Source: an uncultured Thermotogaceae bacterium (lineage in GTDB: Bacteria > Thermotogota > Thermotogae > MWEM01). From it: a stretch of 64,000 nucleotides of DNA. The translations under genes and the position numbers were made by a program. Below, piece by piece: positions 1,610 through 62,383 of the stretch; position 1 is the stretch's first letter, and each line of letters opens with the position of its first letter. The notes below the pieces were generated by a model that saw nothing but the letters and a program-made list of their open reading frames with translations, was not told the origin of the DNA and did no database searches. Where the stretch lies: positions 15,639 through 79,638 of the forward strand of contig CAZRYM010000002.1 of assembly GCA_964604305.1 (NCBI GenBank). Direction: 5' to 3'.

Positions 1610-1611
1610 GG

Positions 1612-2920
<1,309 letters not shown>

Positions 2921-2989
2921 TCAAATTTGAAACGGGAAAATGAAAAAAAGAAATATGAATAATAAAATAAAAGCAAGGAGGTTACAATT

Positions 2990-3346: not shown

Positions 3347-3361
3347 AGATCAATCGTTTAA

Positions 3362-3382
3362 GGGAACCCGGGATGGGTTCCC
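3362..3382 (+). other. Perfect 8-bp GC-rich hairpin (GGGAACCC-gggat-GGGTTCCC) between rplS and lepB, with no U-tract
   Basis: The inverted repeat is visible directly; it is not followed by a T-run, so it is not a canonical intrinsic terminator. Confidence 0.3.
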
Positions 3383-3409
3383 GCTTCCATTACAGGGGCT
3401 GATATTACC

Positions 3410-25616: not shown

Positions 25617-26526
25617 GTCCAATTCACTGACTTTAGGAATATTTGATGGTGTTCATATTGGACACAGGCGGCTTATTGAGAAAACAAAAGAAGTTAAAGA
25701 AACAAGCGGAAAGACGATATTGCTGACGTTTGCATATCCATCAACATACTATCTTCATAAAGAGAGTTTCCCGGGACTCATATATTCCCCGCGTAAGAGG
25801 GAGGAGATCATCAAATCATTGGGTATGGATTCTGTTGTTTTTCTTGACTTTAAGCAGTTTTATACAAAAACTCCCCTTGAATTTGTCAGGTATATCACCG
25901 AGCAATTTTCTCCTTCAGAGTTGACTGTTGGGTTTAACTTTCATTTTGGGAAAAATAGGATTGGTGACTCAGAGCTTCTATTAGATTTGGGGCATCGCTT
26001 TGGTTTTCGAACGAATATTGTACCTGCTGTTAACGCCTCTGGTCACAGAGTAAGCAGCTCATTAATTCGATATTTTTTAAAAAATGGAGATATTAAACGG
26101 GCTAATGAAATATTAAAATGTCCTTATTCAATAGAGGGAAAGGTTTTTCAGGATCAGGGACTGGGGAAAAAATTAGGATTTCCTACAGCTAATCTAAAGA
26201 GAGAAGGAAAAGGTTTGCTGACTCCGTGTTATGGTGTATATCTGGGTTATACACCTGGACTGGGTTTTGGTTTATTGAACATAGGCAAAAGACCAACAGT
26301 CAGCCAGGATGATTTGATCCATTATGAAGTACACTATTTAAAGGGCCATTATCAGTTATATGGAACGAAAATTGTCTGTTATCTTCTTGACTTCATTCGT
26401 CAAGAAAAAAAGTTTTTGTCTGTTGATGAGCTGGTTCAAGAGATAAAAAAAGACAGAAAGAAGGCATATCAGAAAATAGAGAGTTTAACAATTGAAGATG
26501 GTTGGTGGAAAAATGAAATTAAATAA
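25609..26526 (+). CDS. ribF: Bifunctional riboflavin kinase / FMN adenylyltransferase
   Basis: LGIFDGVHIGHRRLI FAD-synthetase N-terminus; C-terminal riboflavin kinase domain GFPTANL. Confidence 0.85.
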   Translation: MIKSNSLTLGIFDGVHIGHRRLIEKTKEVKETSGKTILLTFAYPSTYYLHKESFPGLIYSPRKREEIIKSLGMDSVVFLDFKQFYTKTPLEFVRYITEQFSPSELTVGFNFHFGKNRIGDSELLLDLGHRFGFRTNIVPAVNASGHRVSSSLIRYFLKNGDIKRANEILKCPYSIEGKVFQDQGLGKKLGFPTANLKREGKGLLTPCYGVYLGYTPGLGFGLLNIGKRPTVSQDDLIHYEVHYLKGHYQLYGTKIVCYLLDFIRQEKKFLSVDELVQEIKKDRKKAYQKIESLTIEDGWWKNEIK

Positions 26527-28126
26527 ATGGAGTATAATCTTTCTTCTGGTTTTAATTGTGTCTGTGTTCCTTTCTTGGGAATTCTTTATCACTAGCAGGA
26601 TGAATTTGGATGTTTCATTCATCTTTCCCGATGGCATATCGGATGATGTGGAGTTCGAAATGAGAATCTATTCTGAGGAATTTGACAACAAGACGGCGGT
26701 CTTTCCACATGATAAAGAGATTAATTATTCAAGTATGCCATTTGGGGATTATTTCTTTGAACTCTATTTGGACGATCGTTTAATCATCAAAGAATTTCAC
26801 AATTTTCAATCTCAATTTTCAATAAAACGAGCTAAAGAACAAGTTGCTCTGGATATCAGTGAATTGGCCACGATTACTTCAGTTAACTATAAGATTGTCG
26901 ACCCCTATTTAACTATCAAATGGACCGGAAAATACCTTGGTGCTTATAAACCTGCTGAGTATCTTGTTTACCTAAATAATAACGAAAGACTCTTAAGTGT
27001 AAATTATTTAGAATTAGATGTTTTGAAGGAACTGCTTGAGGGTGAGCAAGCGGTAGATATTAGAATAATCCCCCTTACACAGTCAGGTGGAAAATTATTG
27101 AGTTTTGAATATCAGGTGCCAATCAGAATGGAGAGTGTTAGGCTGGATATTCCCGAAGGTTTTAACATCTATGATATGAGTATAAATATCCAGGAAAAGC
27201 GCATTCCAATTGACCCTTATGATTCGCGTATTAGTTTTCCTGTCATCGATTTAAGTGAGAATAGCATACCCTTCGAAATCTATTACTATGAAGATAGAAT
27301 ATGGAAATCAGAATTAGATCTGTCTGAAGTTGTTGAAACTATCAAGATACCGGATATTCCACAAGCTACAGTAACGGAGGTAGACTTGGATGAATCAACC
27401 GTCACAGTGCATTTGAACATCGATCGGGAAAAAGAGTTCTTGTACAATCGGTTTAAATATTTTGAAATTAGTTCCGACACAATTAATACAACTGCTACAG
27501 AATATTTTACCTACAATAATGATAATCAGAATATTTACATCACGCCCCTCTTTGAACCTGATATCCAAGGAGAAACCCTTCTTTTTACAATTCCTCAACC
27601 ACCAATTCCGCATTTGCATACGTATATGTTCGATGAGAACTTGGATTTTGCACCTTCAATTAAGATTTATTCCGATAGTTTTCTAAAACTAACCGGAAAC
27701 TTGCAGATAGATAATACTCTAGTTCACAATATACCTGAATTCAAAGGAGAATATCTCTTTGAATTGGATTTCGAAAAAGATGAGGTTCATTTGATAGAGA
27801 TAAGCCTTGAGGATATTTACGGACAAACTGCTCAAAAGGCAAAATGGATTTCAACCTCAGTTCCGGAGACCTCTTTTTTTATTAAAGCCGAGCTCAACAA
27901 AAACCAGATCCTAGATATCAAATGGGACAGTTTAACGATTTATCAGGAAACCGAACTGATTATTACTGACAATTATAATATTAAGAGATTTTATCCGGAA
28001 GAGTCCGGCTTACAAATTGATCTTTCAGGTACCTTGTTACGTGAACCTCTGAGAGTAATATTAAAGGGTTTTTTAAACGGTGATGAGTATACAGCAGCTG
28101 TCATTGAAGGGATAAGAAGCGAGTAA
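26513..28126 (+). CDS. Hypothetical membrane-anchored extracytoplasmic protein
   Basis: N-terminal TM span WSIIFLLVLIVSVFL, then about 500 aa of beta-rich sequence with no recognised motifs; co-directional with, and overlapping, the ribF end. Confidence 0.55.
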   Translation: MKLNKWSIIFLLVLIVSVFLSWEFFITSRMNLDVSFIFPDGISDDVEFEMRIYSEEFDNKTAVFPHDKEINYSSMPFGDYFFELYLDDRLIIKEFHNFQSQFSIKRAKEQVALDISELATITSVNYKIVDPYLTIKWTGKYLGAYKPAEYLVYLNNNERLLSVNYLELDVLKELLEGEQAVDIRIIPLTQSGGKLLSFEYQVPIRMESVRLDIPEGFNIYDMSINIQEKRIPIDPYDSRISFPVIDLSENSIPFEIYYYEDRIWKSELDLSEVVETIKIPDIPQATVTEVDLDESTVTVHLNIDREKEFLYNRFKYFEISSDTINTTATEYFTYNNDNQNIYITPLFEPDIQGETLLFTIPQPPIPHLHTYMFDENLDFAPSIKIYSDSFLKLTGNLQIDNTLVHNIPEFKGEYLFELDFEKDEVHLIEISLEDIYGQTAQKAKWISTSVPETSFFIKAELNKNQILDIKWDSLTIYQETELIITDNYNIKRFYPEESGLQIDLSGTLLREPLRVILKGFLNGDEYTAAVIEGIRSE

Positions 28127-29696: not shown

Positions 29697-32000
29697 TTGA
29701 CTATTGGTAAAAAATTGATGCTAGGGTTTGGTTTAATAATTGTGTTGTTGTTGATTGTGATGCTAATTTCTTTCATTTCCAGCCAAAGCATTAAAGACGA
29801 GGGTGAAAGTATTGTGATTCAGGCAAAAGATGCCAGATCTGAATACAAACAATTTACTAACATAGATACTTTTGAATCGGATTTAAAGGATATGCTCCAA
29901 TATGTATTGAGACTGGGTTATGTAACAAATACAGATGAACAGGAAATGATGTTCGAAGAATATAAAAAGATGTTTTCTGCTGTAGAAGAACTGTCGAAGA
30001 CTAATGGATTTTTTTCACTTTTAGAATTAGAATTAACCAAATTGAATGATAGTGTTGAAAAGATCTTCACGCAAAAGGCGTTAGAATTGGATGCCCTTTC
30101 ACAGCTTTCTGCTGACAAAGTAACAGCAGAGGACATCAGAACACAATTGGAATTTTTGTATAAAGAAAAGGAAGAACTGCTAAAGAGGGATGACATGAAG
30201 ATCGTCCGTATCATTCAAACTTTACAAATGATGAAACAGGATTATATTTCCTTAAGACAGCCTGATGAAAAGAAAGAGAATGAAATAAAAGAACGACTTT
30301 TAGAATCAGGTTTAGATGGGTTAACTTTCATTGAGATGGAAGTTTTATGGGACAATGAAGTTTTGGGAGGGCCGCCAATCACTGGATTTCCTATGCTTAT
30401 TCTCTGTGCAAGAGAATTGATGGCAACCGATGGTAAATATCCGGATTTCTTATCAGAGTTGAAACAGGCGAAAGAAGATATTCTGGATTATATAAAATTA
30501 AAAACTCAATTTGGTTATACTACATATGATGCTGTGGCATCCATTTTTGTTCCGTTATCTGTTGAGTTATATGAAAAAAAACTGAAAAAACTGCAGGAGT
30601 CGTTGTTAAAAATAAGCCGTATGGAAGTCAATTTACAAGCAAAGGAAAATATGGTCGGCTACCATAATGAAACTGCTGAGCAAGCCCGAAAAGACTCGCT
30701 AAATACCATTAAAAATGAACTTTCAACAGTATTGAATGATTTGCAGGTACGACTTGAAGCACTTATTTCTGAAAGCGCCACTAGTTTTAATGAAAATCTC
30801 AATCAAGTGGAAGAAAAAAGTGAAGAAAGCGTTACTCTGATAAACAACATGAATTCGTTTATTTTGATCGTGTTGATCACATCCGTTTTGATCAGCATCA
30901 TCATTGCCTACTTTATCTATTCAAGTATCAAAAAACCTATTGTCAACATCCTGAAAAAAACCGAAAAAATCAAAAACCTTGACTTTACTGTTGAATTTGA
31001 AGAAACAAAGAAAAAAGATGAAATGGGACAATTGGAAACTGCGTTGAAAGAGATTGTATGGGCTGTTAAAGAAACCTTGCAGAATGTAAAAAAGGCAATA
31101 GAAGATGTGAAGGAATCCACCGACAAACTGGAACAGGTAGCCGGTGAATCCGAAAACATCTCAAAGGAGCTTAAATCACAGGCAGACAGGACGGAAAACG
31201 ATGTACAAGACACGTCAGCGGCGATTGAAGAGGTAAGTTCGGGAGTAGAGGAAGTGGCGGCATCGGCGAAGAACATCACAGACGTATCGTCAGATCTGTA
31301 CGAAAGGACACAGGAAACGTCCAAATCGGCAAAAAGCGGACAGAAAGAACTGACAAAAGTGGCAGACATTGTCAAGGAAGCGGAAGAGCAGGCAAAGGCA
31401 ACGTCCAGAGTAGTAGAGGAGTTGCAAGCAAATGCGAAGAACGTGGGAGAAATCGTCAAGACGATATCGGGAATCTCAGAACAGACGAACCTGTTGGCGT
31501 TAAATGCTGCGATAGAGGCAGCGCGTGCTGGAGAAGCAGGTAAAGGCTTTGCGGTAGTAGCGGATGAGATCAGGAAATTGGCGGAAGAGAGTCAGAAATC
31601 GACGGAAGACATTGCAAAGATGCTCAAAGAGATTGGAAATGGAGTGGGCGAAGTCAACGATGCTTCGGATAAGACGGTGGAGATTGTAAACAAGATGGAA
31701 GAAAACTCCAGAGAGGCCCTTGAACAATTTGAAAACATACTTGAACGACTGAGCGGGGTAACGGAGTCCGTCCACAATCTCAACAGTACATCAGAGGAAC
31801 AAAGTGCGGCAGCGCAAGAGATAGCGGATGCAATGGATCAATCAGCCCGATCCATGGTTAATGCTTCCGAACAGGTTGAGAATATGGTTCGTGATGTTGA
31901 ACAACAAGTTGATTCAATATCAAAAATGAATGAGATATCACAAACAATGAGGCGTTTAGCAGATGATTTAAGATTGGATATCAGCAAATTTAAATCATAA
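29697..32000 (+). CDS. Methyl-accepting chemotaxis protein 1 (N-terminal TM span, large extracytoplasmic sensor, second TM, HAMP, MCP signalling domain)
   Basis: TM1 [22 protein letters not shown]2 [20 protein letters not shown], then HAMP; highly conserved MCP signalling domain ...[39 protein letters not shown]. Confidence 0.85.
31119..31891 (+). repeat. Copy A of a 773-bp block 100% identical to 33599-34371 (MCP signalling domain), GC-rich relative to its flanks
   Basis: Base-by-base identity with an offset of 2480 bp; mismatches immediately outside both ends. Confidence 0.95.
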
Positions 32001-32176: not shown

Positions 32177-34480
32177 ATGAAAATTTCTACCAAGTTATTA
32201 ATGGGATTTACAGTTATTATTATCATTCTTGTTGTAGTTTTATTGGTATCCACCATATCTAACAGAGAAGTTGTTTTGCAAGCAGATACTGTTCTTGAGC
32301 AAACAGATGCTTCTGAGAAAGAGCTTCTTGAATTTAGAAGGTATAATCAGTTGGAAAGTGGTATCAAAGATATGATACAGACTGTATTGAATTTGGGATA
32401 TGTGGCAACGATAGAAGAAGAGAATTTGATTAAAGAACAATACCAAAAAAATGTAGAAAGTTTGAAGGAGATCATATCAAGCTATGAAAGTGCTGAGACT
32501 TACTTACAAACTATTTCTCAGATAGACGAATATGTCAAAGATGTATTCAACTATAAAGAAATAGAGATTCTTTCTCAAAAGGAATTAGAAGAGAATCAGG
32601 AAAAGCAAAAGCAATTCATGGTAAAAAAGACTTCTTTTACTGAAAAGATTCAGAAGATGCAGAAAGTAGATATGCAAAAAGTTGAAAAAACCATGGAATC
32701 GTTTAAACTTATAAAAGACGAGCATGCAGAAATGAAAAAGCCAACCGATGAGCAAAAGCAGATGTTGAATGAAGAGTTGATCAGTAAAACAGATGTCGAA
32801 GAGTTGGGAATGTATGAAATAGAGGAGATTTGGAAACCGGAATTACTTGATATAACCATAAAGGAGTTTTCTGATCTTGAATTCGTAACACGAAATATTA
32901 TCATCAATCCGGAAGATTCGGAGGAATTGCTTCCCAAGGCAGTTGAAATTGCCGAAAAGATAAACAGCAATGTGGGTTTTCAGGTGATGTTTGGTTCAGC
33001 TGTGTATGATCCTGTCTCTGCACAACTGATATCTTTAACCTTGGATAAGTATATTGAGCAGCTGAAAGAAATGGTAAAAATAATCAATGAGAGAGAAGAA
33101 AATGAAAAAGCCATGATCGTAGTACAGGAAGTAATAGAAAATGCAAATCAAAGGGTAGATGAAAGCAGAACTTTGGCTTTTAATATTATCAATACCAATA
33201 TTAAGACTAGCAGTCGGGAGCTGTCATCCATTATCGAGGAAAAAGCCGAAAACCAATATGGAAGTTTGAAACAAAGTTTTGAATCTATCAAAAAGAATAA
33301 CACAACCAGTAAAGAAACAATAGAGAAAAACAATTTCCAAATATTATTGCTGATATCAATCACCATTGTGATTAGTCTGATTGTAGCGGTAGTTATTATC
33401 AGAAGCATTAAAAAGCCAATTAAACGTTTACTTGAGAAATCAACTTTACTTCAAAATCTGGATATGACGGTGGATTTTGAAGCAGATAGCGGTAAAGACG
33501 AAATAGGACAAATCGAACACGCACTGGCACGGGTCGTAGAGGTCATAAAAGATACATTAACCGATTTCAGAAATGCAGTTCAGAACGTTAGAATGGCAAC
33601 CGACAAACTGGAACAGGTAGCCGGTGAATCCGAAAACATCTCAAAGGAGCTTAAATCACAGGCAGACAGGACGGAAAACGATGTACAAGACACGTCAGCG
33701 GCGATTGAAGAGGTAAGTTCGGGAGTAGAGGAAGTGGCGGCATCGGCGAAGAACATCACAGACGTATCGTCAGATCTGTACGAAAGGACACAGGAAACGT
33801 CCAAATCGGCAAAAAGCGGACAGAAAGAACTGACAAAAGTGGCAGACATTGTCAAGGAAGCGGAAGAGCAGGCAAAGGCAACGTCCAGAGTAGTAGAGGA
33901 GTTGCAAGCAAATGCGAAGAACGTGGGAGAAATCGTCAAGACGATATCGGGAATCTCAGAACAGACGAACCTGTTGGCGTTAAATGCTGCGATAGAGGCA
34001 GCGCGTGCTGGAGAAGCAGGTAAAGGCTTTGCGGTAGTAGCGGATGAGATCAGGAAATTGGCGGAAGAGAGTCAGAAATCGACGGAAGACATTGCAAAGA
34101 TGCTCAAAGAGATTGGAAATGGAGTGGGCGAAGTCAACGATGCTTCGGATAAGACGGTGGAGATTGTAAACAAGATGGAAGAAAACTCCAGAGAGGCCCT
34201 TGAACAATTTGAAAACATACTTGAACGACTGAGCGGGGTAACGGAGTCCGTCCACAATCTCAACAGTACATCAGAGGAACAAAGTGCGGCAGCGCAAGAG
34301 ATAGCGGATGCAATGGATCAATCAGCCCGATCCATGGTTAATGCTTCCGAACAGGTTGAGAATATGGTTCGACAGCTTGAAAATCAATCAGCTTCGGTAA
34401 AAGATTTATCTCAGACTTCAAGCGAGTTGACAGTTCTAAACAAAGAACTTGAAGAGGATATCAACAAATTTAAATTATAG
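32177..34480 (+). CDS. Methyl-accepting chemotaxis protein 2; tandem paralog with a divergent sensor domain and an identical signalling domain
   Basis: Same architecture and length (767 aa) as MCP1; N-terminal 470 aa unrelated at sequence level; C-terminal 257 aa identical. Confidence 0.85.
33599..34371 (+). repeat. Copy B of the 773-bp identical block
   Basis: See copy A. Confidence 0.95.
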
Positions 34481-51911: not shown

Positions 51912-54900
51912 ATGGTTGTTGAAATTCCGGAGATTGGGATACCTATTACAAAATTACTTGAAAGACTTGGTCTTGGTGAGATTGAGCTTGAAGGTGTCAT
52001 AAGTAGCATTTCTTTTAACTTTAATGACGAGAAAGAGCAAGGTACCTTGGTGATTAATTGTCAGGATGAGATAGAAAATGATTCTTTAGATATGATTTGT
52101 GGCGCGTTGAATGCCTATTTTAAATGTGACTTAAAAGTGTCGCTTAAAAATGAGCATTTAACTCCTGCTAAGGAAACTGTGTTGAGATGGAAAAAGATTC
52201 TTGATATTTTAAATGGAAGTTTTTCATACGTTACTGATGCCGTTTATATCCGAGCAGAAACGGATGATTGTGTCTGTTGTCATGTCCCTAATGCATTTGT
52301 GTTGAATAAGATCAGAAAGAATAAAACTATGTTGCTAGAAGCTATCGAAAGGGTAGTCAAGCAGAAGGTTGATGTGACTTTCGTCCTGGATGATAATGAA
52401 GAGTCTCAGAATGAATCTTCATATTCTCCGGAAATAACTGTTACGGATGTTTTGATGCAAACTAATCCAGTTCCAAAAAAACCCCCTAAAAAATTGGAGC
52501 AATTGGCCTTTTCGGATTCTCCCACACCAATTTATCAGATGGTATTCAACCGATCAACTTTTACAATAGAAGGGGAGGTTTTTTCGTTTGAATATCGTGA
52601 TAATTCGGGGGTAGCAACTTTAGGTTTGTACGATGGCACCGATTCAGTAAAATGCATCGCTTTTAGGGACTGTGCCAAATGGTTAAATGACAATGTCAAA
52701 AATGGAATAAGAATTGTGGCTTTGGGGAAGGCAACTGTTGATAACAGGACTCAAAAGCCGGCTTTTTTCATCGATCAGGCAAAAACAGCAGCACAAAAAG
52801 AAGAGATAACTGACGAAGAATCTGTAAAGAGGGTGGAATTACATGCCCATACCCAGATGAGTGCCATGGATTCCATCATGAAGATTGATGATTATATCAA
52901 TACTGCCTCAAGGTGGGGATGGGAAGCACTTGCCGTTACAGATCATGGTGTTGTTCAAGCCTTTCCCGATTTGTATGAAAAGTGTATCAAAAAGGGCATA
53001 AAGCCCATTTTTGGAATGGAAGGCTATTTGGTTGATGTGACACCAATTGTTTACAATAAAGAATTGATTGAAGAAACTTCCTTTACGCAAACAGAAATAG
53101 AGAAATTGCAATATGTGGTGTTTGATTTTGAAACAACCGGGTTAAGTCCATTAAATGACACAATCATTGAGTTTGGTGCAGTTAAAATCAAAAATGGTGA
53201 AATAGTAGATACCTTTTCTGCCCTTATCAATCCAAAAAGGAACATCTCGGAAAAAATCACAGAAATTACAGGTATTACCAACGATATGCTAAAAGGAAAA
53301 CCTGAGATTGAAGAAATCCTCCCGGGATTTCTGGATTTCATAAAAGGTAGTATTTTAGTAGCTCATAACGCCAATTTTGATTATCGTTTTTTAAAACAAC
53401 AAGTAAAAAAAGTCTTGAAACAAGAATATCACTGTGCCTATATCGACACACTTTCTCTTTCCAGAGCCCTCTTGAGCATTAGAAGTAATTCTTTAGATAA
53501 GGTCGTAAAGGCACTAAAGCTTGAAGAATTCAATCATCACAGGGCTCTTGATGATGCAGATATTACCGGGAAGGTTTTTTTATCGCTTGTTGATATTGCA
53601 AAAAAACGTGGCAAAACAACCCTTAGCGCGTTGGATTCTTTAAAAAGCGAAATGGACCTGAAAAAACTCTTTGGGAGAGATTTCACGATCTATGTATTAA
53701 ACTCAAAGGGTTTATACAATTTATACAAGCTTGTGACCGAAAGTCATATCAAGTATTTTGGCAAAGGTGTTCCACTGATACCAAAGGAATTACTCTCCCA
53801 AAACAGAGAAGGTTTGCTTGTGGGGACGGGAAGCCCAATGAGTGAGTTATCCTCTGCTTATCGGTATGGTTATGATGAGTCCGAATTGAAGGAAATCGCA
53901 CAATTCTACGATTTTGTAGAAATAATGCCACCGGATGCTTATACAGAAGTAGAAGAGGGTATGAATTACGATAAGATGCTGCATATGTATCAAACTTTTT
54001 ATAAACTCAGTTCTGCGATTGGTCTTGATTGTATCATGACGGGGAATGCCCACTATTTAAAACCTGAGAATAAAAAACCCTGGTCGATCATGAAAATTAG
54101 TGAAAAGGCACTTCGAAGAAGAAACAAAAAATTTTCATCTGACATGTATCAAACAGTGAATTTACAGCTTAGAACAACGAGTGAAATGCTAGCAATCGCT
54201 GAAAAGATCACGGGCTCATCCGAAGCAGCCCGGCAGGTTGTTTTAGAAAACCCCAAAAAAATTGTTGAGAAAACCGATGATATAAAACCCATCACCCGAA
54301 AGCTACATACTCCTGAAATGGAAGGAGCCGATGAAGAGATAAGAGAAATTTCCTATCATAAGATGCACGAAATTTATGGGAAAAATCCTCCTGAAGATGT
54401 TGAAAAACGGTTGAACTTTGAATTGGATGCCATCATAGGGAATGGATATTCTGTACTTTATCTGATTGCCCAGAAGATTGTGAAAAAATCAATGGAAGAC
54501 GGTTACTTGGTTGGATCAAGAGGCTCTGTGGGGTCTTCACTTGTAGCCACAATGCTTGGTATTACCGAAGTTAATCCCCTTGCCCCCCATTATGTTTGTC
54601 CTGTCTGTAAAAAAACCGAATTTGCAATGATAGAGGGATGTTCATCCGGGTACGATTTACCAGATAAGTCGTGTTCCGAATGTGAGACTAAGATGCAAAA
54701 ATTTGGACAGGAGATCCCTTTTGAGACTTTTATGGGATTCAACGGAAACAAAGTGCCGGATATTGACTTGAATTTTTCAGGAGAATATCAGACCAAGGCA
54801 CATAAATATATTGAAGAATTATTTGGTTCTGACCACGTCTTTAAAGCAGGTACCATCAGTACAGTTGCCGATAAGACTGCTTATGGATATGTACTTCGTT

Positions 54901-56180
54901 TTGAGGAGGCCACCGAGCAATCCATCAAAGATATAGAGAAGGAAAGGATCGCTCAGGAAATAGCCGGTGTTAAGCGGACCACCGGTCAGCATCCAGGAGG
55001 ATTAATGATTGTGCCTAAATCCAAAACAGTCTTTGAATTCACTCCGGTACAACATCCGGCAAATGACAGAAATTCAGATATCCAGACTACACATTTCGAT
55101 TATCATTCTATTCATGATGATCTTGTGAAAATTGATGCACTTGGACATGACGATCCCACTTTCATGAGATACCTTCAGGATATTACCAATCTCAATCCGC
55201 TTGATGTGCCAATGGATGATAAAAAGACCATTGAGCTTTTTTCAAGTATGCGACCCATCGGATTAAAAAACGGAGATATTCCCGGAGTAGAGAACGGTTC
55301 ATTGGGTATTCCTGAATTTGGAACGACTTTTGTTCGAAGTATGCTTCTTGACACTCGCCCAAAAACATTTGCGGATTTGGTTAGAATATCAGGTTTATCA
55401 CACGGTACAGGGGTTTGGATTGATAATGCCAAAAATTTAATTAATGACAGAGTAGCAAAGCTGCAAGATGTGATCGCTTGTCGTGATGATATAATGAATA
55501 AATTGATCCACAGCGGGATAGAACATGTTCAGGCATTTCAAATAATGGAAACGGTAAGAAAAGGCAAAGAACTTAAGTTGGAAGACATTGAAACTATGAA
55601 AAAACATGGAATCAAAGACTGGTTCATGAAATCATGTGAATCTATCAAATATCTGTTTCCGAAAGCCCATGCAGTTGCTTATGTTTCTATGGCCTTTCGT
55701 GTTGCTTTCTTTAAGGTTCATCACCCACTTGCTTTTTATTCCACATATTTTACGGTAAAGGGTGGGGAGTTTGATGTTAATCTTATCATGAGTGGTCCTG
55801 AAAAGATTAGAATGTGGTTGAAGGACCCGGAATCATACGCCAGTATGAGTAAACAGAAATTGAACGCATCCAGAATTATCAACGAAATCGGGTTGGAGAT
55901 GCTTCTAAGGGGGTTTGAATTCCTGCCGGTTAATATAAAAAAATCAAGTATAAATACTTTTAAAATAGAGGATTCCAAATTACGGATACCTTTTAACAGA
56001 GTAAGTGGTTTGGGTGACAGAGTTGCAAAATCTATCGTTGCTGAAAGGGAAAAGAGCGATTTTGTATCTATAGATGATTTTAACAATAGAACTTTAGTAT
56101 CAAATTCAACCATAGACATTCTCAGAGAGATGGAGGCTTTTGACGGGTTACAAGAACATGCACAGTATTCACTATTTTAA
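51912..56180 (+). CDS. polC: DNA polymerase III PolC-type (PHP-exonuclease-polymerase)
   Basis: HAHTQMSAMD PHP; YVVFDFETTGLSP DEDDh exonuclease insertion; 1422 aa; RBS GGAGGT. Confidence 0.9.
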   Translation: MVVEIPEIGIPITKLLERLGLGEIELEGVISSISFNFNDEKEQGTLVINCQDEIENDSLDMICGALNAYFKCDLKVSLKNEHLTPAKETVLRWKKILDILNGSFSYVTDAVYIRAETDDCVCCHVPNAFVLNKIRKNKTMLLEAIERVVKQKVDVTFVLDDNEESQNESSYSPEITVTDVLMQTNPVPKKPPKKLEQLAFSDSPTPIYQMVFNRSTFTIEGEVFSFEYRDNSGVATLGLYDGTDSVKCIAFRDCAKWLNDNVKNGIRIVALGKATVDNRTQKPAFFIDQAKTAAQKEEITDEESVKRVELHAHTQMSAMDSIMKIDDYINTASRWGWEALAVTDHGVVQAFPDLYEKCIKKGIKPIFGMEGYLVDVTPIVYNKELIEETSFTQTEIEKLQYVVFDFETTGLSPLNDTIIEFGAVKIKNGEIVDTFSALINPKRNISEKITEITGITNDMLKGKPEIEEILPGFLDFIKGSILVAHNANFDYRFLKQQVKKVLKQEYHCAYIDTLSLSRALLSIRSNSLDKVVKALKLEEFNHHRALDDADITGKVFLSLVDIAKKRGKTTLSALDSLKSEMDLKKLFGRDFTIYVLNSKGLYNLYKLVTESHIKYFGKGVPLIPKELLSQNREGLLVGTGSPMSELSSAYRYGYDESELKEIAQFYDFVEIMPPDAYTEVEEGMNYDKMLHMYQTFYKLSSAIGLDCIMTGNAHYLKPENKKPWSIMKISEKALRRRNKKFSSDMYQTVNLQLRTTSEMLAIAEKITGSSEAARQVVLENPKKIVEKTDDIKPITRKLHTPEMEGADEEIREISYHKMHEIYGKNPPEDVEKRLNFELDAIIGNGYSVLYLIAQKIVKKSMEDGYLVGSRGSVGSSLVATMLGITEVNPLAPHYVCPVCKKTEFAMIEGCSSGYDLPDKSCSECETKMQKFGQEIPFETFMGFNGNKVPDIDLNFSGEYQTKAHKYIEELFGSDHVFKAGTISTVADKTAYGYVLRFEEATEQSIKDIEKERIAQEIAGVKRTTGQHPGGLMIVPKSKTVFEFTPVQHPANDRNSDIQTTHFDYHSIHDDLVKIDALGHDDPTFMRYLQDITNLNPLDVPMDDKKTIELFSSMRPIGLKNGDIPGVENGSLGIPEFGTTFVRSMLLDTRPKTFADLVRISGLSHGTGVWIDNAKNLINDRVAKLQDVIACRDDIMNKLIHSGIEHVQAFQIMETVRKGKELKLEDIETMKKHGIKDWFMKSCESIKYLFPKAHAVAYVSMAFRVAFFKVHHPLAFYSTYFTVKGGEFDVNLIMSGPEKIRMWLKDPESYASMSKQKLNASRIINEIGLEMLLRGFEFLPVNIKKSSINTFKIEDSKLRIPFNRVSGLGDRVAKSIVAEREKSDFVSIDDFNNRTLVSNSTIDILREMEAFDGLQEHAQYSLF

Positions 56181-56192
56181 TGGAGGAGAGAG

Positions 56193-56666
56193 ATGACTGA
56201 GAAGATCAGGATAGGGAAAAAGAAGCATATCGCGTTAATTGCCCATGATTACAGAAAAAAGGATTTAATCGAATGGGTACATTATAACAAAGGAACACTC
56301 TCCACTCACCATCTGTACGGAACAGGAACAACAGGAAGCTTGATAGAAGAAAAGATCGGTTTACCTGTAAAAACATTCAAAAGCGGTCCCCTGGGGGGAG
56401 ATCAACAAATAGGCGCAAAGATTGCAGAAGGGATTATCAATTGTTTGATCTTTTTTTGGGACCCATTATCCCCACATTCTCACGATGTGGATGTTAAGGC
56501 GTTGTTGAGAATTGCCACCGTTTATAATATACCGGTGGCTACCAACCGAGCTACAGCAGATTTTCTCATTAGTTCTCCTTTGATGGAGGAGGTTTACGAA
56601 AGGGATTTATACGATTTTCAATCGAGACATCGGAAGGAAACCTTGAGAGCCCTTAAGGAAGAATAA
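56193..56666 (+). CDS. mgsA: Methylglyoxal synthase
   Basis: [14 protein letters not shown]...LYGTGTTG...[10 protein letters not shown] is the MGS signature. Confidence 0.85.
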
Positions 56667-56918
56667 TCGTGCAAACCCTTGCAAAGATTTTATACTTCTT
56701 TTGATTTAAAAAAGATTTATTGAATAAAAAGACACAATTAAGATAAGCTGCAGATAAACGATTTAGAAATGAACCATGTTTATAGAAAAAAACTTGAAAA
56801 AAGATAAGCTTGTAATTTTTTGGATGGCAGAGGGAATTTCTTTGTGTTATAATAATCTGGGAAAAATAGAAATTCGACTATCATTGACGAGCTGTCTTTT
56901 TTTTTATCAGCTTGTGAA

Positions 56919-57446
56919 GTGAATCACGAATCGGAGGTGTTGCTGTTGTCAACAGGTGAATCAAAAGTTGCTTGTGCAGAACATGAAAAGCTGTACGAAA
57001 AACTTGACGTGTTTATTGAAGAAGTAAAAGATAAACCCGGCGTACTGATCGAGGTACTACATAAGGCGCAAGAGATGTTCGGGTATCTTCCTGTAGAAGT
57101 ACAGAGCCATGTAGCTCAGAAATTAAATCTACCGGAAAGTCAGGTATATGGTGTCGTTACTTTTTACAATTTCTTCACCATGAAGCCCAGGGGAAAGAAT
57201 CAAATCAAGATCTGTCTTGGTACGGCTTGCTATGTAAAAGGCGCTGATAAAGTTCTTGACAGATTTAAAGAAGAACTAAAAGTTGAAATGGATGAAGTAA
57301 CAGAAGATGGTAACTTTTCTCTGCATGGTGTAAGATGCCTGGGGGCATGTTCTATGGCACCGGTAGTGTTAATTGGAGAAAAGGATTTTTATGGAAAAGT
57401 AACAGCGAACGAAATACCAAAGATATTAAAGAAATACAAGGGGTGA
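56919..57446 (+). CDS. NuoE/HndA-like [2Fe-2S] thioredoxin-like ferredoxin subunit (copy 1)
   Basis: KICLGTACYVKG...RCLGACSMAP four-Cys pattern of NuoE 24-kDa family; the start may be the internal TTG about 56943 after GGAGGTG. Confidence 0.8.
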   Translation: MNHESEVLLLSTGESKVACAEHEKLYEKLDVFIEEVKDKPGVLIEVLHKAQEMFGYLPVEVQSHVAQKLNLPESQVYGVVTFYNFFTMKPRGKNQIKICLGTACYVKGADKVLDRFKEELKVEMDEVTEDGNFSLHGVRCLGACSMAPVVLIGEKDFYGKVTANEIPKILKKYKG

Positions 57447-57830
57447 ATGAAGATGGCAAAGATTAAAAGTTTGGATGAGTTGATGAAAATAAAAGAAAAG
57501 GCCGTTAAGGATATCCAGATGAGAGATACAGAGAAGAAAGGGAAAATCGTAGTTGCAATGGGAACTTGTGGAATTGCTGCCGGTGCGAAGGAAACATTGC
57601 AGGCGGTTGTTAACGAATTGGAAAAAAATGGCATCGATGATGTATCCGTCGTTCAATCCGGTTGTATGGGATTATGTGATGTGGAACCCACAGTTGAGGT
57701 AGTCATGGAAGGCAGTGATCCCATCATCTATGGTCATGTTTCACCTGAGCAGGTAGCAAGAATAATTGACCAGCATGTAAAGAATGGAAAAGTTGTCAGT
57801 GATTTGTTAGTTAGAAAGGGCGAAATCTGA
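57447..57830 (+). CDS. HndB-like small thioredoxin-fold [2Fe-2S] ferredoxin
   Basis: VVAMGTCGIAAG...SGCMGLCDVEP; 127 aa. Confidence 0.65.
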   Translation: MKMAKIKSLDELMKIKEKAVKDIQMRDTEKKGKIVVAMGTCGIAAGAKETLQAVVNELEKNGIDDVSVVQSGCMGLCDVEPTVEVVMEGSDPIIYGHVSPEQVARIIDQHVKNGKVVSDLLVRKGEI

Positions 57831-57859
57831 TCAGATAAAAGATTGCGAGGTGAGTAGAG

Positions 57860-59659
57860 TTGCCGGTTGCAACTAATACGATATTAATGTGCGCTGGCGG
57901 AGGATGTATTTCCTCCGGAGAAGAAAGTTGTTTACAAGCACTGCAAAAAGCAGTTGAGAAGTATTCGCTCCACGATGTGGTTAAGGTTGTTGAAACAGGG
58001 TGCATGGGAATGTGTGATGCGGGTCCTTTGATGGTTATCTACCCTGAAGGGGTATATTATCAAAAATTAACACCTGAGGATGTCGAAAAAATCATTTCCG
58101 AACACATTTTGAAGGGTAGAATTGTTGAGGATAAGTTGCTGGACAATCCCGTTTCGAGCTTAAAAACGCATAATCCTTATGATGATCATCCCTTCTTCAC
58201 AAGACAGGTAAAGATTGCCACCAGAAATATGGGGATTGTAGACCCGATGAAAATAGAAGAGTATATTGCCCACGATGGTTATTTTGCACTTCAGAAAGCC
58301 TTGTCCATGAAACCCGAAGAGATCATAGCAGAACTTAAAGAAAGCGGTCTTAGAGGTAGAGGTGGGGCCGGTTTTCCCACATGGTTAAAATGGGAACTGA
58401 CGAGAAAGGTTCCCGGTGATGAAAAATACGTGTTGTGCAATGCTGATGAAGGAGATCCTGGTGCGTTTATGGATCGATCCATACTGGAAGGGGATCCTCA
58501 TTCTTTGCTGGAGGCAATGGTCATAGCCGGTTATGCCATTGGAGCAAACAAAGGATATATCTATATCAGAGCCGAATATCCCCTTGCCATTGAGAGGTTA
58601 AATGAAGGAATCAAACAGGCAAAAGAACTGGGGTTGTTTGGCGAAAACATCATGGGATCAAATTTCTCTTTTGATGTTGAGATCAGAATGGGTGCCGGTG
58701 CATTTGTATGTGGTGAAGAAACTGCTTTAATTGAGTCAATAGAAGGAAAACGGGGACAGCCAAGGGTTAAGCCGCCCTTCCCCGCTCAAGTTGGAGTATG
58801 GGGTAAGCCAACCCTTAATAACAACGTAGAAACTTACGCAAACATTCCGCCAATATTGACAAAGGGAGCCAAATGGTTTTCCAGTATCGGAACTGAAACA
58901 AGCAAGGGAACAAAGGTTTTTTGCCTTGCGGGAAAAGTTAAGAATACCGGTTTAGTTGAAGTTCCAATGGGAATTACATTAAGAGAAGTTGTGTATGATA
59001 TCGGAGGCGGTATTCCAGACGGTAAAGCTTTTAAAGCTGTTCAAACCGGGGGTCCCAGCGGTGGATGTATTCCGAAAGAACACCTGGATACTCCAATCGA
59101 CTATGAAACGTTGAAAGAACTGGGAACTATGATGGGATCCGGCGGTATGATATTTATGGATGAGGATACATGTATGGTGGATGTGGCAAAGTATTTCCTT
59201 GATTTTTCTGTTGAAGAATCTTGCGGAAAATGTCTACCCTGTCGCGAAGGCAATAGAGTCATGCTTGATATGCTGGAGAAAATAACCAGTGGCGAAGGTG
59301 AAGAAGGGGACATTGAAAAACTTGAAGTATTAGGTAAAAATATTATGGACACATCTCTTTGCGGTCTTGGACAATCATCTCCCCAACCCGTCATATCAAC
59401 AATCAGATACTTTAGAGATGAATACGAAGCCCATATAAAAGAGAAAAGATGTCCTGCTAAAGTTTGCAAGCCTTTGATAAGATACCTAATTGATCCGGAA
59501 AAATGTGTTGGGTGTACGGCCTGTGCAAGAGTTTGTCCAGTGTCTGCCATAAGCGGAGAGGTAAAAAAGGTTCATGAAATAGATAGCGAGATTTGCACCA
59601 GATGTGGCAGCTGTATACAAGTTTGCCGATTTGGAGCGATAAGCATTGTTTCACCGTAA
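57860..59659 (+). CDS. NuoF/HndC-like NAD(P)H-binding flavoprotein subunit (copy 1, complete)
   Basis: N-terminal CAGGGC...GCMGMC thioredoxin-like 2Fe-2S; GRGGAGFPTWLKW FMN/NADH site; ESCGKCLPCREG N3 cluster; C-terminal 2x CxxCxxCxxxCP. Confidence 0.85.
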   Translation: MPVATNTILMCAGGGCISSGEESCLQALQKAVEKYSLHDVVKVVETGCMGMCDAGPLMVIYPEGVYYQKLTPEDVEKIISEHILKGRIVEDKLLDNPVSSLKTHNPYDDHPFFTRQVKIATRNMGIVDPMKIEEYIAHDGYFALQKALSMKPEEIIAELKESGLRGRGGAGFPTWLKWELTRKVPGDEKYVLCNADEGDPGAFMDRSILEGDPHSLLEAMVIAGYAIGANKGYIYIRAEYPLAIERLNEGIKQAKELGLFGENIMGSNFSFDVEIRMGAGAFVCGEETALIESIEGKRGQPRVKPPFPAQVGVWGKPTLNNNVETYANIPPILTKGAKWFSSIGTETSKGTKVFCLAGKVKNTGLVEVPMGITLREVVYDIGGGIPDGKAFKAVQTGGPSGGCIPKEHLDTPIDYETLKELGTMMGSGGMIFMDEDTCMVDVAKYFLDFSVEESCGKCLPCREGNRVMLDMLEKITSGEGEEGDIEKLEVLGKNIMDTSLCGLGQSSPQPVISTIRYFRDEYEAHIKEKRCPAKVCKPLIRYLIDPEKCVGCTACARVCPVSAISGEVKKVHEIDSEICTRCGSCIQVCRFGAISIVSP

Positions 59660-59734
59660 GAACAATAATCAGGCTGATTCTTTCTTGTTGGATCAGCCTT
59701 TTGGTTTTTACACCGTAATCAATTAACAGGGGGT

Positions 59735-60238
59735 GTGATAGTGGTTTCAGATAAAGAAATGCAAGTTGTTGAAACTATAGTAAATGGTGTTGTAACAGAC
59801 GATAGTCTGGCAGAGGGTGATGTGTTAATCAACTGTCTGCATGAAATACAGAATCATTTTCACAATTTTGTTCCACCTGAAGCGGCTGAAAAAGTTGCTC
59901 AGATATTGAAGGTTCCCGAATCTTCAGTCTACGAGGTTTTAACCTTTTACACCATGTTTTCTGTTGAGAAAAGGGGAAAGTATGTGATTAGGGTTTGTAA
60001 CAGTTTACCCTGCCACGTGACTGGAGGAAAGGAAATCATTTCAACTTTAAAAAAAGAGTTGGGTTGTGATTTTTATGAAACAACCAAAGATGGTTTATTT
60101 ACTCTTGAAAAGACAGGTTGTCTTGGTTTGTGCGGAGTCTCTCCGGTAATTATGATAAATGAAGAGTTTTACGGAAATTTGACGAATGACAGGGTTTTGG
60201 AGATTATTAACAAAATTCGTGAAGAGGAGCGTGGATGA
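59735..60238 (+). CDS. NuoE/HndA-like [2Fe-2S] subunit (copy 2)
   Basis: RVCNSLPCH...GCLGLCG four-Cys pattern; 167 aa. Confidence 0.8.
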   Translation: MIVVSDKEMQVVETIVNGVVTDDSLAEGDVLINCLHEIQNHFHNFVPPEAAEKVAQILKVPESSVYEVLTFYTMFSVEKRGKYVIRVCNSLPCHVTGGKEIISTLKKELGCDFYETTKDGLFTLEKTGCLGLCGVSPVIMINEEFYGNLTNDRVLEIINKIREEERG

Positions 60239-61866
60239 AAATGAAGATACAGACGGTTTTAGTTTCCGTAGATTCAAGCAGCGCACTTCGCGGAGCGAGG
60301 CAGTTTAAAAAGCAAATTGAAGAGAGCGTCAAAAAATATCAATTATCGGATATGGTTGAAGTACTTGAAACAGGGAGTCTTGGAGTATACAAAGATGGTG
60401 TCATCGTAGCAGTTTATCCTGAGGAGGTCTTTTATGAAATAAATACCTCTGAAGATGTGGAAACCTTAGTGACTGAACACTTTCTCAAAGGCAGAATTGT
60501 AAAAGATTTGATGGTCGAAAGATCAGTCATCAAGCATGATGTAAAAGAGAGTGGAAAACTTAATCGTGAAGAAAGAATCGTGTTAAAAAATATTGGTATC
60601 ATTGATCCCCGTGAGATTGAAGAATATATTGCACGTGACGGATATCTGGCATTAGCAAAAGTTCTCAATGAAATGAACCCCGAAATCGTAATTGATGTGG
60701 TTAAAAAAAGTAACCTAAGGGGACGCGGTGGGGCAGGCTTTCCCACAGGAATGAAATGGGAATTTACCGCAAAAGTCGATAACCCAGAGAAATATGTCAT
60801 CTGTAATGCCGATGAAGGGGAACCTGGTACATTCAAAGACAGATTGATTATGGAAGGTGATCCTCATTCTGTTGTAGAAGCAATGACAATAGCTGGATAT
60901 GCTGTGGGTGCAAATAAAGGTTATATCTATATACGAGGAGAATATTACGGGTCAATCGATAATATCAGAAAAGCCATAAAAGATGCATATGATTTTGGTT
61001 TATTGGGTGAGGACATTTTGGGGAGCGGGTTCAGTTTCGATCTCTCAGTCAGACTTGGAGCAGGAGCTTATATTTGCGGAGAAGAAACCGCCTTGATAGA
61101 ATCCATCGAAGGCAGACCCGGAAGACCTAGATTGAAGCCTCCATATCCTCCTGTAGAAGGATTATACGGTAAACCAACAGTAGTCAATAACGTTGAAACC
61201 TTTGGAAATATTCCATGGATAATCAATAACGGACCAGATGCTTTTAAAGCAATAGGTACTGAAGGTTCTGCAGGAACAAAGGTATTTACCCTGGTTGGTA
61301 ATATTATCAATCGTGGACTGGTTGAAGTACCCATGGGGACCACCATTTTTGACTTGATATATAAGTACGGGGGTGGTATTCCCGAAGGTAAGAAATTAAA
61401 GATTGTTCAAACAGGCGGAACAGCTGGTACCTTTATGAATACCGAAAAATTAGAAATTGGTTTAGATTATGATTCGGGCAAAAACGGAGCTTCTTTGGGC
61501 TCAGGTGTTATTCTTTGTATGGATGAGGAGAGTTGCCCTGTGGACTGTGCCAAAACAGTCATGGAATTTTTTGCTCATGAATCATGTGGAAAATGTACTC
61601 CATGCAGGGAAGGAACAAGGGTATCGGTGAAGTTACTGGAAAAGATCTCCAAGGGACAGGGAAGAGATGAGGAAATTGAACAACTGTTGATGATATCAGA
61701 TGCCATGGAAGAGACTTCTTTCTGTGGACTTGGACAATCTGCAGCGATACCTCTGAGAACCATAGTCGAATCCTTTAAACAAGAGTTTAAAGACCATGTT
61801 CTAAAAAAGCCTTGTGATTCATGTACTTATGAAGAACCAAAAAAGAAAAAGAGGGCAAAAAGATAA
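60235..61866 (+). CDS. NuoF-like flavoprotein (copy 2) lacking the N-terminal Cys ligands and the C-terminal 2x[4Fe-4S] domain
   Basis: GRGGAGFPTGMKWEF and ESCGKCTPCREG retained; the N-terminal domain has SVDSSS / GSLGVY in place of CAGGGC / GCMGMC; ends with a Lys-rich tail instead of the ferredoxin domain. Confidence 0.8.
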   Translation: MKMKIQTVLVSVDSSSALRGARQFKKQIEESVKKYQLSDMVEVLETGSLGVYKDGVIVAVYPEEVFYEINTSEDVETLVTEHFLKGRIVKDLMVERSVIKHDVKESGKLNREERIVLKNIGIIDPREIEEYIARDGYLALAKVLNEMNPEIVIDVVKKSNLRGRGGAGFPTGMKWEFTAKVDNPEKYVICNADEGEPGTFKDRLIMEGDPHSVVEAMTIAGYAVGANKGYIYIRGEYYGSIDNIRKAIKDAYDFGLLGEDILGSGFSFDLSVRLGAGAYICGEETALIESIEGRPGRPRLKPPYPPVEGLYGKPTVVNNVETFGNIPWIINNGPDAFKAIGTEGSAGTKVFTLVGNIINRGLVEVPMGTTIFDLIYKYGGGIPEGKKLKIVQTGGTAGTFMNTEKLEIGLDYDSGKNGASLGSGVILCMDEESCPVDCAKTVMEFFAHESCGKCTPCREGTRVSVKLLEKISKGQGRDEEIEQLLMISDAMEETSFCGLGQSAAIPLRTIVESFKQEFKDHVLKKPCDSCTYEEPKKKKRAKR

Positions 61867-61925
61867 ATTATTATCGGAATATTAACGTTTCAATGTTAAA
61901 TAATGGTAAATTTTTTGATAATAAG

Positions 61926-61965
61926 GCGGGTACTGTTGACAATGTACCCGCTTTAGTAGTAAAAT
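61926..61965 (+). promoter_or_regulatory. Candidate rpsL (str operon) promoter TTGACA-18-TAAAAT, with the -35 embedded in the loop of a perfect 8-bp hairpin (GCGGGTAC...GTACCCGC)
   Basis: TTGACA 61936-61941; TAAAAT 61960-61965; hairpin arms 61926-61933 and 61944-61951; the hairpin plus TTT may also act as a weak terminator for the upstream operon. Confidence 0.45.
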
Positions 61966-62011
61966 ACGCCTGGTTAATTTCAAAATCAAGGAAGGAGGTA
62001 TTTTCTAATAG

Positions 62012-62383
62012 ATGCCGACAATCAATCAGTTAGTCAGAAAAAGCAGGAAGATTATTAAAGACAAATCAAAAGCACCTGCATTACAAAAGAATCCTCAAAA
62101 AAGAGGTGTTTGTGTCAGGGTAACGACGATGACGCCCAGAAAGCCAAATTCAGCACTTAGAAAAATTGCTAGAGTCAGGCTTGCAAACGGAATGGAAGTT
62201 TCCGCATATATTCCAGGTGAAGGACACAACTTACAGGAACATTCTGTTGTAATGGTACGAGGTGGAAGAGTCAAAGATCTGGCAGGTATACGTTACAGAA
62301 TTATTAGAGGAGCACTTGACACTGCGGGTGTTGAAGATAGAAAACAAGCTCGTTCCAAATACGGGACAAAGGCTCCTAAATAA
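62012..62383 (+). CDS. rpsL: 30S ribosomal protein S12
   Basis: [10 protein letters not shown]...PNSALRK...[13 protein letters not shown]-like; unmistakable S12. Confidence 0.95.

Follow-up and report, generated by a model that had tools for sequence, protein, structure and literature searches.

In the bifurcating [FeFe] hydrogenases HndABCD of Desulfovibrio fructosovorans and HydABC(D) of Thermotoga maritima, Acetobacterium woodii, and Thermoanaerobacter kivui, the catalytic subunit (HndD or HydA) is encoded in the operon. Here, we analyzed a five-gene operon (positions 56919–61866) in a 64,000-nucleotide stretch of DNA from an uncultured Thermotogaceae bacterium, hereafter the window, and we designate its genes, in order, E1, B, F1, E2, and F2. 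The first three match HndA, HndB, and HndC (HydC, HydD, and HydB) in that order, whereas at the usual place of HydA the operon has a second NuoE/NuoF pair. E1-B-F1 resembles the bifurcating enzymes in domain content, cluster ligands, the His/Cys site termed B2, and the bifurcating signature, and F1 scores 825 to 862 bits against solved HydB chains. F2 shares other features, namely the T/K and Y residues, a motif other than GGPSG, and no extra Fe-S domains, with the non-bifurcating hydrogenases Hyd1ABC of Syntrophomonas wolfei and HydAB of Syntrophus aciditrophicus (PMC7311640). From these comparisons and from the gene neighborhoods described below, we propose, with a probability of roughly 0.6, that the five genes supply the electron-input side of a multimeric [FeFe] hydrogenase that is split, its catalytic HydA being encoded elsewhere in the genome.

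All five open reading frames (ORFs) lie on the + strand between mgsA (56193–56666) on one side and rpsL (62012–62383) on the other: the NuoE-like E1 (56919–57446), the HndB-like B (57447–57830), the NuoF-like F1 (57860–59659), and a second NuoE-like and NuoF-like gene, E2 (59735–60238) and F2 (60235–61866). Since the intergenic distances are 0, 29, and 75 nucleotides (E1-B, B-F1, and F1-E2) and the E2 stop overlaps the F2 start by 4 nucleotides, the tight spacing fits one operon. An earlier note on this DNA had listed two NuoE/NuoF modules in this order, which the ORFs and their Pfam domains bear out.

In the first module, E1 is a NuoE/HoxE/HndA-like [2Fe-2S] subunit of the BfuC type. It matches Pfam 2Fe-2S_thioredx (PF01257) at 170 bits, its four cysteines are kept in orthologs, and its best NCBIfam match, HoxE, stays under that model's cutoff. 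B, a small thioredoxin-like subunit similar to HndB and HydD, matches the [2Fe-2S] family PF01257 weakly (25.1 bits against a cutoff of 24.8), is 36 to 38% identical to the N-terminal domain of F1, and keeps three of the four canonical [2Fe-2S] cysteines (C41, C73, and C77) in all Thermotogota orthologs, the first ligand position being Ala or Val in all of them. F1 (599 residues) is a complete flavoprotein of the bifurcating NuoF/HndC/BfuB type. It combines 1) an N-terminal thioredoxin-like [2Fe-2S] domain (B5; 57860–58144; Pfam 2Fe-2S_thioredx) with ligands C11, C16, C48, and C52, 2) Complex1_51K, SLBB, and NADH_4Fe-4S domains, and 3) a C-terminal 2x[4Fe-4S] ferredoxin domain (B3/B4; 59480–59656), which in Bfu enzymes faces ferredoxin and where Pfam places two Fer4 domains at residues 543 to 594 and the cysteines form two CxxCxxCxxxC motifs (549/552/555/559 and 579/582/585/589). 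Its B2 ligands are C438, T, H525, C531, and C536, and its best solved relative is the NiFe-HydB of Acetomicrobium mobile (7t2r_B, 862 bits over the full length).

Schut et al. 2022 define the BfuB family by a 51K flavin mononucleotide (FMN) domain, an SLBB domain, a NuoF-type 4Fe-4S domain, and C-terminal 4Fe-4S domains (IPR011538, IPR019554, IPR019575, and IPR017896), and F1 has this domain set (PF01512, PF10531, PF10589, and two PF00037). In bifurcating beta subunits, positions 232/234 of T. maritima HydB are A or E plus M, position 367 is F, and the SLBB domain contains GGPSG; non-bifurcating ones carry T or S plus K, S, or A at the first two positions, Y at the third, and no GGPSG (Losey et al. 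2020, PMC7311640). On this basis, F1 is of the bifurcating type (A/M, F, and GGPSG), and so is its counterpart in every Thermotogota locus that we fetched (21 loci, L001–L019, L087, and L093; L-numbers label fetched loci and P-numbers their proteins). All signatures published for bifurcating BfuB/HydB subunits are present in the F1 sequence, and the module is a complete set of the bifurcating, HndABC/BfuBC-like type, in line with the earlier note, which called this NuoF complete. Among NuoF models, TIGR01959 scores best with F1 and F2, but both stay below its cutoff, and the one model that they pass, NF010120, has a lower threshold; a reading as NuoEF of complex I was rejected because no other nuo-type genes are present among the Pfam-annotated ORFs of the window.

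In the second module, E2 is a [2Fe-2S] subunit (PF01257 at 167 bits, four cysteines conserved) that is 40% identical to E1, and F2 (543 residues) is 50% identical to F1. The Pfam domains of F2 are limited to Complex1_51K, SLBB, and NADH_4Fe-4S, with the FMN and nicotinamide adenine dinucleotide (NADH) site and the N3/B1 cluster. Its N-terminal domain (60235–60519) has S11, S16, S48, and Y52 where F1 has Cys. In an alignment to F1 and to solved HydB chains, these columns are replaced in register (C11S, C16S, C48S, and C52Y) and not shifted, so that the loss of all four ligands announced in the earlier note stands, but the residues are Ser/Ser/Ser/Tyr and not Ser/Gly/Val/Tyr. Across 120 F2 orthologs, these positions hold S in 117, S in 117, S or T in 118, and Y in 118. 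An AlphaFold2 model of F2 (49 orthologs) predicts a beta-alpha-beta-beta-beta-alpha thioredoxin-like fold for residues 6 to 84, with a predicted local distance difference test (pLDDT) score of 66 to 90 for the block. The C-terminal 2x[4Fe-4S] ferredoxin domain is missing from all 120 orthologs, and F2 ends 13 residues past its last conserved Cys, as a Lys/Arg-rich tail (61825–61863) in place of that domain, much as the earlier note had it. In the F2 family, the last 14 residues have a mean of 5.9 K+R versus 1.3 D+E, and in the AlphaFold2 model the tail of F2 is low-confidence and disordered; that it docks an acidic ferredoxin or a partner subunit is a guess only.

Among the 120 orthologs, F2 shows no variation at its N3/B1 cysteines, in its Gly-rich loop, or in its CGEETAL motif, and the FMN, NADH, and B1 residues are 100% conserved. 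The non-bifurcating-type signature (T/K, Y, and GGTAG) is invariant or near-invariant among them and occurs in every Thermotogota locus. The NADH-type glutamates of CGEETAL are present in both F1 and F2 and invariant in the 120 orthologs. Mutagenesis of Glu183 in Escherichia coli NuoF reportedly marks these glutamates as a determinant of NADH versus NADPH use, and NADPH use, which the earlier note had allowed, would on that basis be disfavored. F2 also retains a B2 site for Zn or [2Fe-2S] (61795–61824; H521, C527, and C530, together with C434), whose His is found in 120/120 orthologs and whose Cys in 113 to 120/120, with CxxC spacing in the window's clade. The B2 site binds Zn in later structures (PMC11829005), and Schut et al. 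2022 (PMC9304861) report the site as typical of Bfu subunits and its His as absent from non-bifurcating homologs. F2 has this His like BfuB, but it fails the ferredoxin-type-domain feature of BfuB. As judged by its residues and domains, F2 carries every signature of a presumptive non-bifurcating, NADH-only subunit, yet retains the His/Cys B2 site. The minimal bifurcating site is B1-FMN-C1, yet bifurcation requires the B3/B4 ferredoxin domain (PMC11829005); since E2-F2 lacks this domain, E2-F2 alone should not bifurcate.

The overall build of F2 has a parallel in FdsB, which with FdsG forms the diaphorase of the NAD-dependent formate dehydrogenase FdsABG (PDB 6tg9 and 6vw7), which has about 500 to 520 residues and likewise no C-terminal ferredoxin domain, 6vw7_B aligning over residues 5 to 518 of F2. 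Like that of F2, the N-terminal domain of FdsB is thioredoxin-like and has no cluster. The scores of F2 are 315 to 365 bits against FdsB and 540 to 562 bits against HydB. F2 is unlike the subunits of non-bifurcating hydrogenases in its cluster-less thioredoxin-like N-domain, its Bfu-type B2 site, and its basic tail, and in the window it comes after a bifurcating module, unlike those subunits, which lie ahead of HydA. In a neighbor-joining (NJ) tree of 139 NuoF-like cores, the F2 family falls on the non-bifurcating side, weakly (35–47/100), leaving the origin of F2 unsettled by this method. In the same set, the F2 family is monophyletic (bootstrap 78/100), and F1 lies at a distance of 0.37 to 0.45 from Firmicutes-type BfuB and 0.67 from F2. 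Since the F2 family is monophyletic and F1 is nearer to Firmicutes-type BfuB than to F2, we take F2 to be an old, separately evolving lineage and not a recent degraded copy of F1. This lineage, the full non-bifurcating signature, and the strong purifying selection described below speak against the view in the earlier note of a duplicated subunit that has lost sites.

F2 has one exact match, in a public metagenome contig with the same gene order, and its closest relatives among the matches listed are all from Thermotogota. A scan of genome contigs with F2 returned 12 true F2-type loci, the remainder being ordinary BfuB. One protein (P0074; L088 794–2452; 552 residues), preceded by E and B on a 2.5-kb contig, is F1-like with four Cys over its first ~100 residues and F2-like over the rest. 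We rejected it as an evolutionary intermediate between F1 and F2; it is an F1-N-terminus/F2-body hybrid, probably a deletion or an assembly chimera.

How widespread is the arrangement? All of the Thermotogota loci that we fetched have the order E-B-F(599)-E-F(~540), and their surroundings are of at least four kinds; the order is found in Mesotoga prima, Fervidobacterium nodosum, Kosmotoga pacifica, Pseudothermotoga caldifontis, and a dozen metagenome-assembled genomes (MAGs). The synteny polC-mgsA-[operon]-rpsL-rpsG-fusA-tuf (window 51912–62383; L008–L017) occurs only in the window's uncultured clade, down to 56% PolC identity. The cultured genera lack the polC-mgsA-rpsL context, and the operons of Mesotoga/Kosmotoga, Fervidobacterium, and Pseudothermotoga have different neighbors each; the five genes therefore travel as a unit. 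Identity to distant genera is 62 to 64% for F2 and 67 to 70% for F1. The ratio of nonsynonymous to synonymous substitution rates (dN/dS) is <0.1 for all five genes, at 0.02 to 0.09 where dS is unsaturated (dS is saturated in several comparisons), and E2 has a value of ~0.03. All five genes are under strong purifying selection. The arrangement is thus not the non-standard one that the earlier note had seen in it, and a preprint (bioRxiv 10.1101/322537) had already described it in M. prima, as Theba_0461–0465.

We found no catalytic gene near the operon, in line with the earlier note. The H-cluster motifs TSCCP, MPCxxK, and ExMxCxxGCxxG occur in no frame of the 64-kb window, and among the window ORFs of at least 150 residues, all annotated with Pfam, neither a hydrogenase nor a formate dehydrogenase nor any further catalytic redox partner turned up; apart from the operon, these are housekeeping, transport, chemotaxis, and regulatory genes. 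The same motif scan detected no hydrogenase or catalytic gene within 10 kb of the operon in the 21 Thermotogota loci; as a positive control, it found HydA immediately beside BfuB in 27 non-Thermotogota loci. A Bfu holoenzyme has BfuA (NuoG-like) or another third-substrate module together with BfuBC, and none lies within 10 kb in these 21 loci.

A solitary HydA does exist in relatives that carry the operon. According to the preprint on M. prima, Theba_0461–0465 have homology to every Hnd subunit but the catalytic HndD, and they are highly transcribed. They reach 1203 to 3697 reads per kilobase per million (RPKM), and the lone HydA, Theba_0443, reaches 3650; Theba_0443 is the only hydrogenase of M. 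prima and lies ~18 genes away, and Nesbo et al. proposed a joint function (bioRxiv 10.1101/322537). The M. prima five-gene cluster that we fetched lies at the position of Theba_0461–0465 and is taken as the same cluster. Similarly, K. pacifica has a group A6 HydA as a solitary gene ~20 kb from the five-gene operon, and in Thermosipho africanus the A6 HydA lies beside the maturases HydG and HydE, with no NuoE/F genes there. Among the matches listed in the respective top-120 lists, members of both the F2 and the A6 HydA families are named in Pseudothermotoga, Thermosipho, Kosmotoga, and Fervidobacterium, and for K. pacifica, T. melanesiensis, T. ferrireducens, and T. atlanticus the two lie on contigs of identical length, taken in each case as one genome. 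Thermotoga sensu stricto is in neither top-120 list. Members of this genus have a classic HydABC operon.

In other lineages, F2-type flavoproteins lie directly beside catalytic genes. Locus L092 (6809–13409) has the order FdhA, E2, an F2 ortholog (P0100), and HydA (P0271), without E1-B-F1. P0100 is 59% identical to F2 and shares its S/S/S/Y, T/K/Y, B2 site, and basic tail; a metagenome scan with it returned one close relative. The FdhA of this locus (900 residues) matches TIGR01591 at 885 bits, and the order FdhA-E2-F2 recurs in an independent contig (L096, 2–2354), an association with FdhA that these F2 orthologs share with FdsB; the window has no FdhA. Homologs of P0271 with 57 to 66% identity are the Thermotogota HydA named "NADH-dependent [FeFe] hydrogenase, group A6" by NCBI, and HydA of this family passes NF040763 (813 and 879 bits, cutoff 765) and fails the clostridial ferredoxin-hydrogenase model. 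From this gene order, an F2-type flavoprotein may form the basis of a unit that joins formate dehydrogenase and hydrogenase and is linked to NADH. Its E2-F2-HydA adjacency is that of the non-bifurcating hydrogenases, with a similar E-F-HydA order in L090 (Rex-NuoE-F2-like-HydA), and is absent from the window. Both module types precede a single HydA in L089 (3863–11373), a locus outside Thermotogota, where a bifurcating-type NuoF that carries a GltD-like Pyr_redox_2 domain as a fusion comes first, and a second NuoE, a cluster-less F2-like non-bifurcating NuoF, and HydA come after it in this order. In L027 (9950–21303), a long NuoF with the bifurcating signature adjoins HydA, its GltD-like fusion being deduced from length only; these NuoF proteins of the two loci have ~1015 to 1021 residues. 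Behind the L092 cluster come NMT1-like, permease, and ABC ATPase genes that may serve the uptake of tungstate or molybdate; the G+C content there is 34.5%.

In the split hydrogenase that we propose, the five genes would encode the NAD(H)- and ferredoxin-facing electron-transfer subunits, and a catalytic HydA of group A6, with a NuoG-like N-terminus, would be encoded at another locus. E1-B-F1 would be an HndA/HndB/HndC-type (BfuC/BfuB) module equipped for flavin-based electron bifurcation/confurcation, with FMN, B1, the [2Fe-2S] cluster of E1 (C1), the B2 site, the B5 cluster, and the B3/B4 ferredoxin domain. E2-F2 would be a second, non-bifurcating, NADH-only module with FMN, B1, and C1 and no ferredoxin domain. 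Together with HydA, they would drive proton reduction with NADH alone or with both NADH and reduced ferredoxin, or catalyze the reverse reaction, acting either as two alternative complexes that share one HydA or as one asymmetric complex. We infer both this division of labor and the physical association with HydA in the window's organism. A single asymmetric hydrogenase, in which E2-F2 and E1-B-F1 share one distant H-cluster, the ferredoxin domain of F1 might serve the B2 site of F2 in trans, and H2 pressure and redox state would switch between NADH-only and confurcating modes, is a tentative and rather doubtful extension. If true, it would be a naturally "dissected" Bfu system that isolates the contribution of B3/B4/B5 to bifurcation.

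Several points weigh against a split hydrogenase. HydA in the window's organism is assumed from relatives, the co-occurrence of operon and HydA rests on named matches in top-120 lists, and the link of the five proteins to HydA is, in any organism, one that we infer. HydA offers one NuoG-like docking surface, which gives no reason for two different flavoprotein modules in one operon. Mesotoga, moreover, produces H2 sparingly if at all (bioRxiv 10.1101/322537). The candidate Rex site of the window, described below, has no Rex-like counterpart upstream of the operon in Mesotoga, Kosmotoga, Fervidobacterium, or a Petrotogaceae MAG. Finally, BfuA-less BfuBC cores, in a clade that includes Thermotogae, are classed by Schut et al. 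2022 as "Type 4," whose third substrate is perhaps handled via unrelated subunits.

The operon could accordingly be a stand-alone Type 4 enzyme with E1-B-F1 as its core, in which E2-F2 replaces BfuA as the nicotinamide entry for the third substrate, working as a soluble oxidoreductase between NAD(P)H and ferredoxin or as a transhydrogenase similar to Nfn. This would suit the absence of catalytic genes both from the window and from the 10 kb around the operon in each Thermotogota locus, as well as the movement of the operon between contexts as a self-contained five-gene unit. Clade 57 of Schut et al. 2022, BfuBC-only and inclusive of Thermotogae, is described without an established third substrate, and the operon probably belongs there. 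Solved Nfn-type enzymes (9n5u NfnB and the 8oh5 and 9bov chains) are close relatives of F1, which scores 777 to 782 bits against 9n5u_B and 8oh5_B. The 8oh5 and 9bov chains are presumably StnABC-type transhydrogenases. What these NfnABC/StnABC enzymes have and the operon lacks is the GltD-like subunit NfnA/StnA: Pfam shows no GltD-like FAD/NADPH domain in the operon, although such a domain is fused to NuoF in L089 and, judging by length, in L027, and the only Pyr_redox_2 protein of the window (22422–23801) is of the dimeric disulfide-reductase type and 34 kb off. Transhydrogenase activity is considered unlikely because there is no NADPH-type module. More generally, the NADH-type residues T/K, Y, and CGEETAL are invariant in F2, and if both flavoproteins use NADH, bifurcation would lack the third redox couple that drives it; pairs of the F2 family adjoin HydA and FdhA genes in L092 and an FdhA gene in L096; and genomes that host the operon hold a solitary, partner-less NADH-type HydA. 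We consider a stand-alone enzyme unlikely, and the partner-less NAD(P)H-ferredoxin or transhydrogenase module of the earlier note largely gives way to L092, L096, and the solitary HydA genes.

The two modules might also be merely co-transcribed and serve different partners, E2-F2 as the diaphorase of HydA and/or of a formate dehydrogenase and E1-B-F1 for another oxidoreductase. E2-F2 does stand beside FdhA and HydA without E1-B-F1 in L092, Bfu cores are known to pair with many third-substrate modules, and F1 and F2 are of different lineages. However, order and tight spacing are strictly conserved across the phylum, none of the loci showed a candidate second partner nearby, and both module types lie ahead of a single HydA in L089, which together make this quite improbable. 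We give almost no credence to the idea that F2, or the whole of E2-F2, is a degenerating and dispensable duplicate. F2 has neither the N-terminal ligands nor the ferredoxin domain and is somewhat less conserved than F1, but its dN/dS is ~0.025, its FMN, NADH, and B1 residues are fully conserved, its N-domain is modeled as a confidently folded thioredoxin-like domain, and E2-F2 is retained in every lineage examined. The dN/dS value and the conserved replacement residues (S/S/S/Y in 117 to 118 of the 120 orthologs) led us to reject a pseudogene or decaying copy.

If the split hydrogenase is real, it would bear on a gap in the physiology of these bacteria. Many Thermotogota lack a classic HydABC, among them the H2-producing Kosmotoga, Thermosipho, and Fervidobacterium and also Mesotoga, which makes little H2; how NADH is re-oxidized during fermentation is unsettled in those genera, and a split enzyme would explain it. 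"Orphan" HydA and "partner-less" NuoEF genes should then be paired across loci in metabolic reconstructions. F2 is in addition a natural and conserved variant in which FMN, B1, C1 (in E2), and Zn/B2 are kept and B3, B4, and B5 are gone, and its position beside a complete BfuB in one operon offers a ready-made comparison for what makes Bfu enzymes bifurcate. The five-gene arrangement itself was already noticed in Mesotoga (bioRxiv 10.1101/322537). In the literature examined, some of it accessible in part, three features appear undescribed: 1) the pairing of a bifurcating-type with a non-bifurcating-type flavoprotein in one operon, 2) the retention of B2 in F2 together with the conserved Ser/Ser/Ser/Tyr and the basic tail, and 3) the adjacency of the F2 family to HydA and FdhA in some lineages.

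Upstream of E1, we sought Rex operators of the type TTGTGAA-N4-TTCACAA. The best match in the whole 64-kb window is the palindrome TTGTGAAGTGAATCACGA (56912–56929), a candidate operator just upstream of the E1 ribosome-binding site (RBS). Its Rex-like half-sites are kept and its 4-nucleotide spacer varies in eight of nine loci of the window's clade, and some of the spacer variants leave no start codon at 56919. Conserved half-sites around a variable spacer therefore point to a protein-binding site and to TTG at 56946 as the real start of E1. This start gives a protein of 166 residues, is preceded by a candidate RBS (GGAGG, 56934–56938), and was also chosen by the gene caller on the identical public contig; it is probably the true one, and not the GTG at 56919 adopted in the earlier note. 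In T. maritima, Rex controls hydrogen-production genes including the hydrogenase gene TM0201, whose operator ATTTGAGAAATTTATCACAAAA was used in crystallography (PMC8836258), and TTGTGAAGTGAATCACGA shares the ATCACAA right half with it. NADH/NAD+-responsive control of the operon by Rex in the window's clade is a lead that these sites suggest. The 64-kb window contains no rex gene. Upstream of HydA, a search for Rex boxes gave a site with two to three mismatches in K. pacifica and none in T. africanus.

A promoter-like site, ATGGCA-18-TATAAT with an extended TG (56824–56853, + strand), lies upstream of the operon and matches 10 of 12 consensus positions, a consensus match only, such sites being at chance level in the region; ahead of rpsL, another (61936–61965) matches 11 of 12. 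Elsewhere in the window, the ORFs of 544 residues (26492–28126) and 164 residues (11793–12287) have no Pfam match at E ≤0.001. A hydantoinase/oxoprolinase A and B pair with an adjoining HAD hydrolase and lactate/malate dehydrogenase (5508–9064, − strand) is unrelated to the operon. Two methyl-accepting chemotaxis proteins of 767 residues, tandem paralogs with a like domain layout, are encoded at 29697–32000 and 32177–34480.

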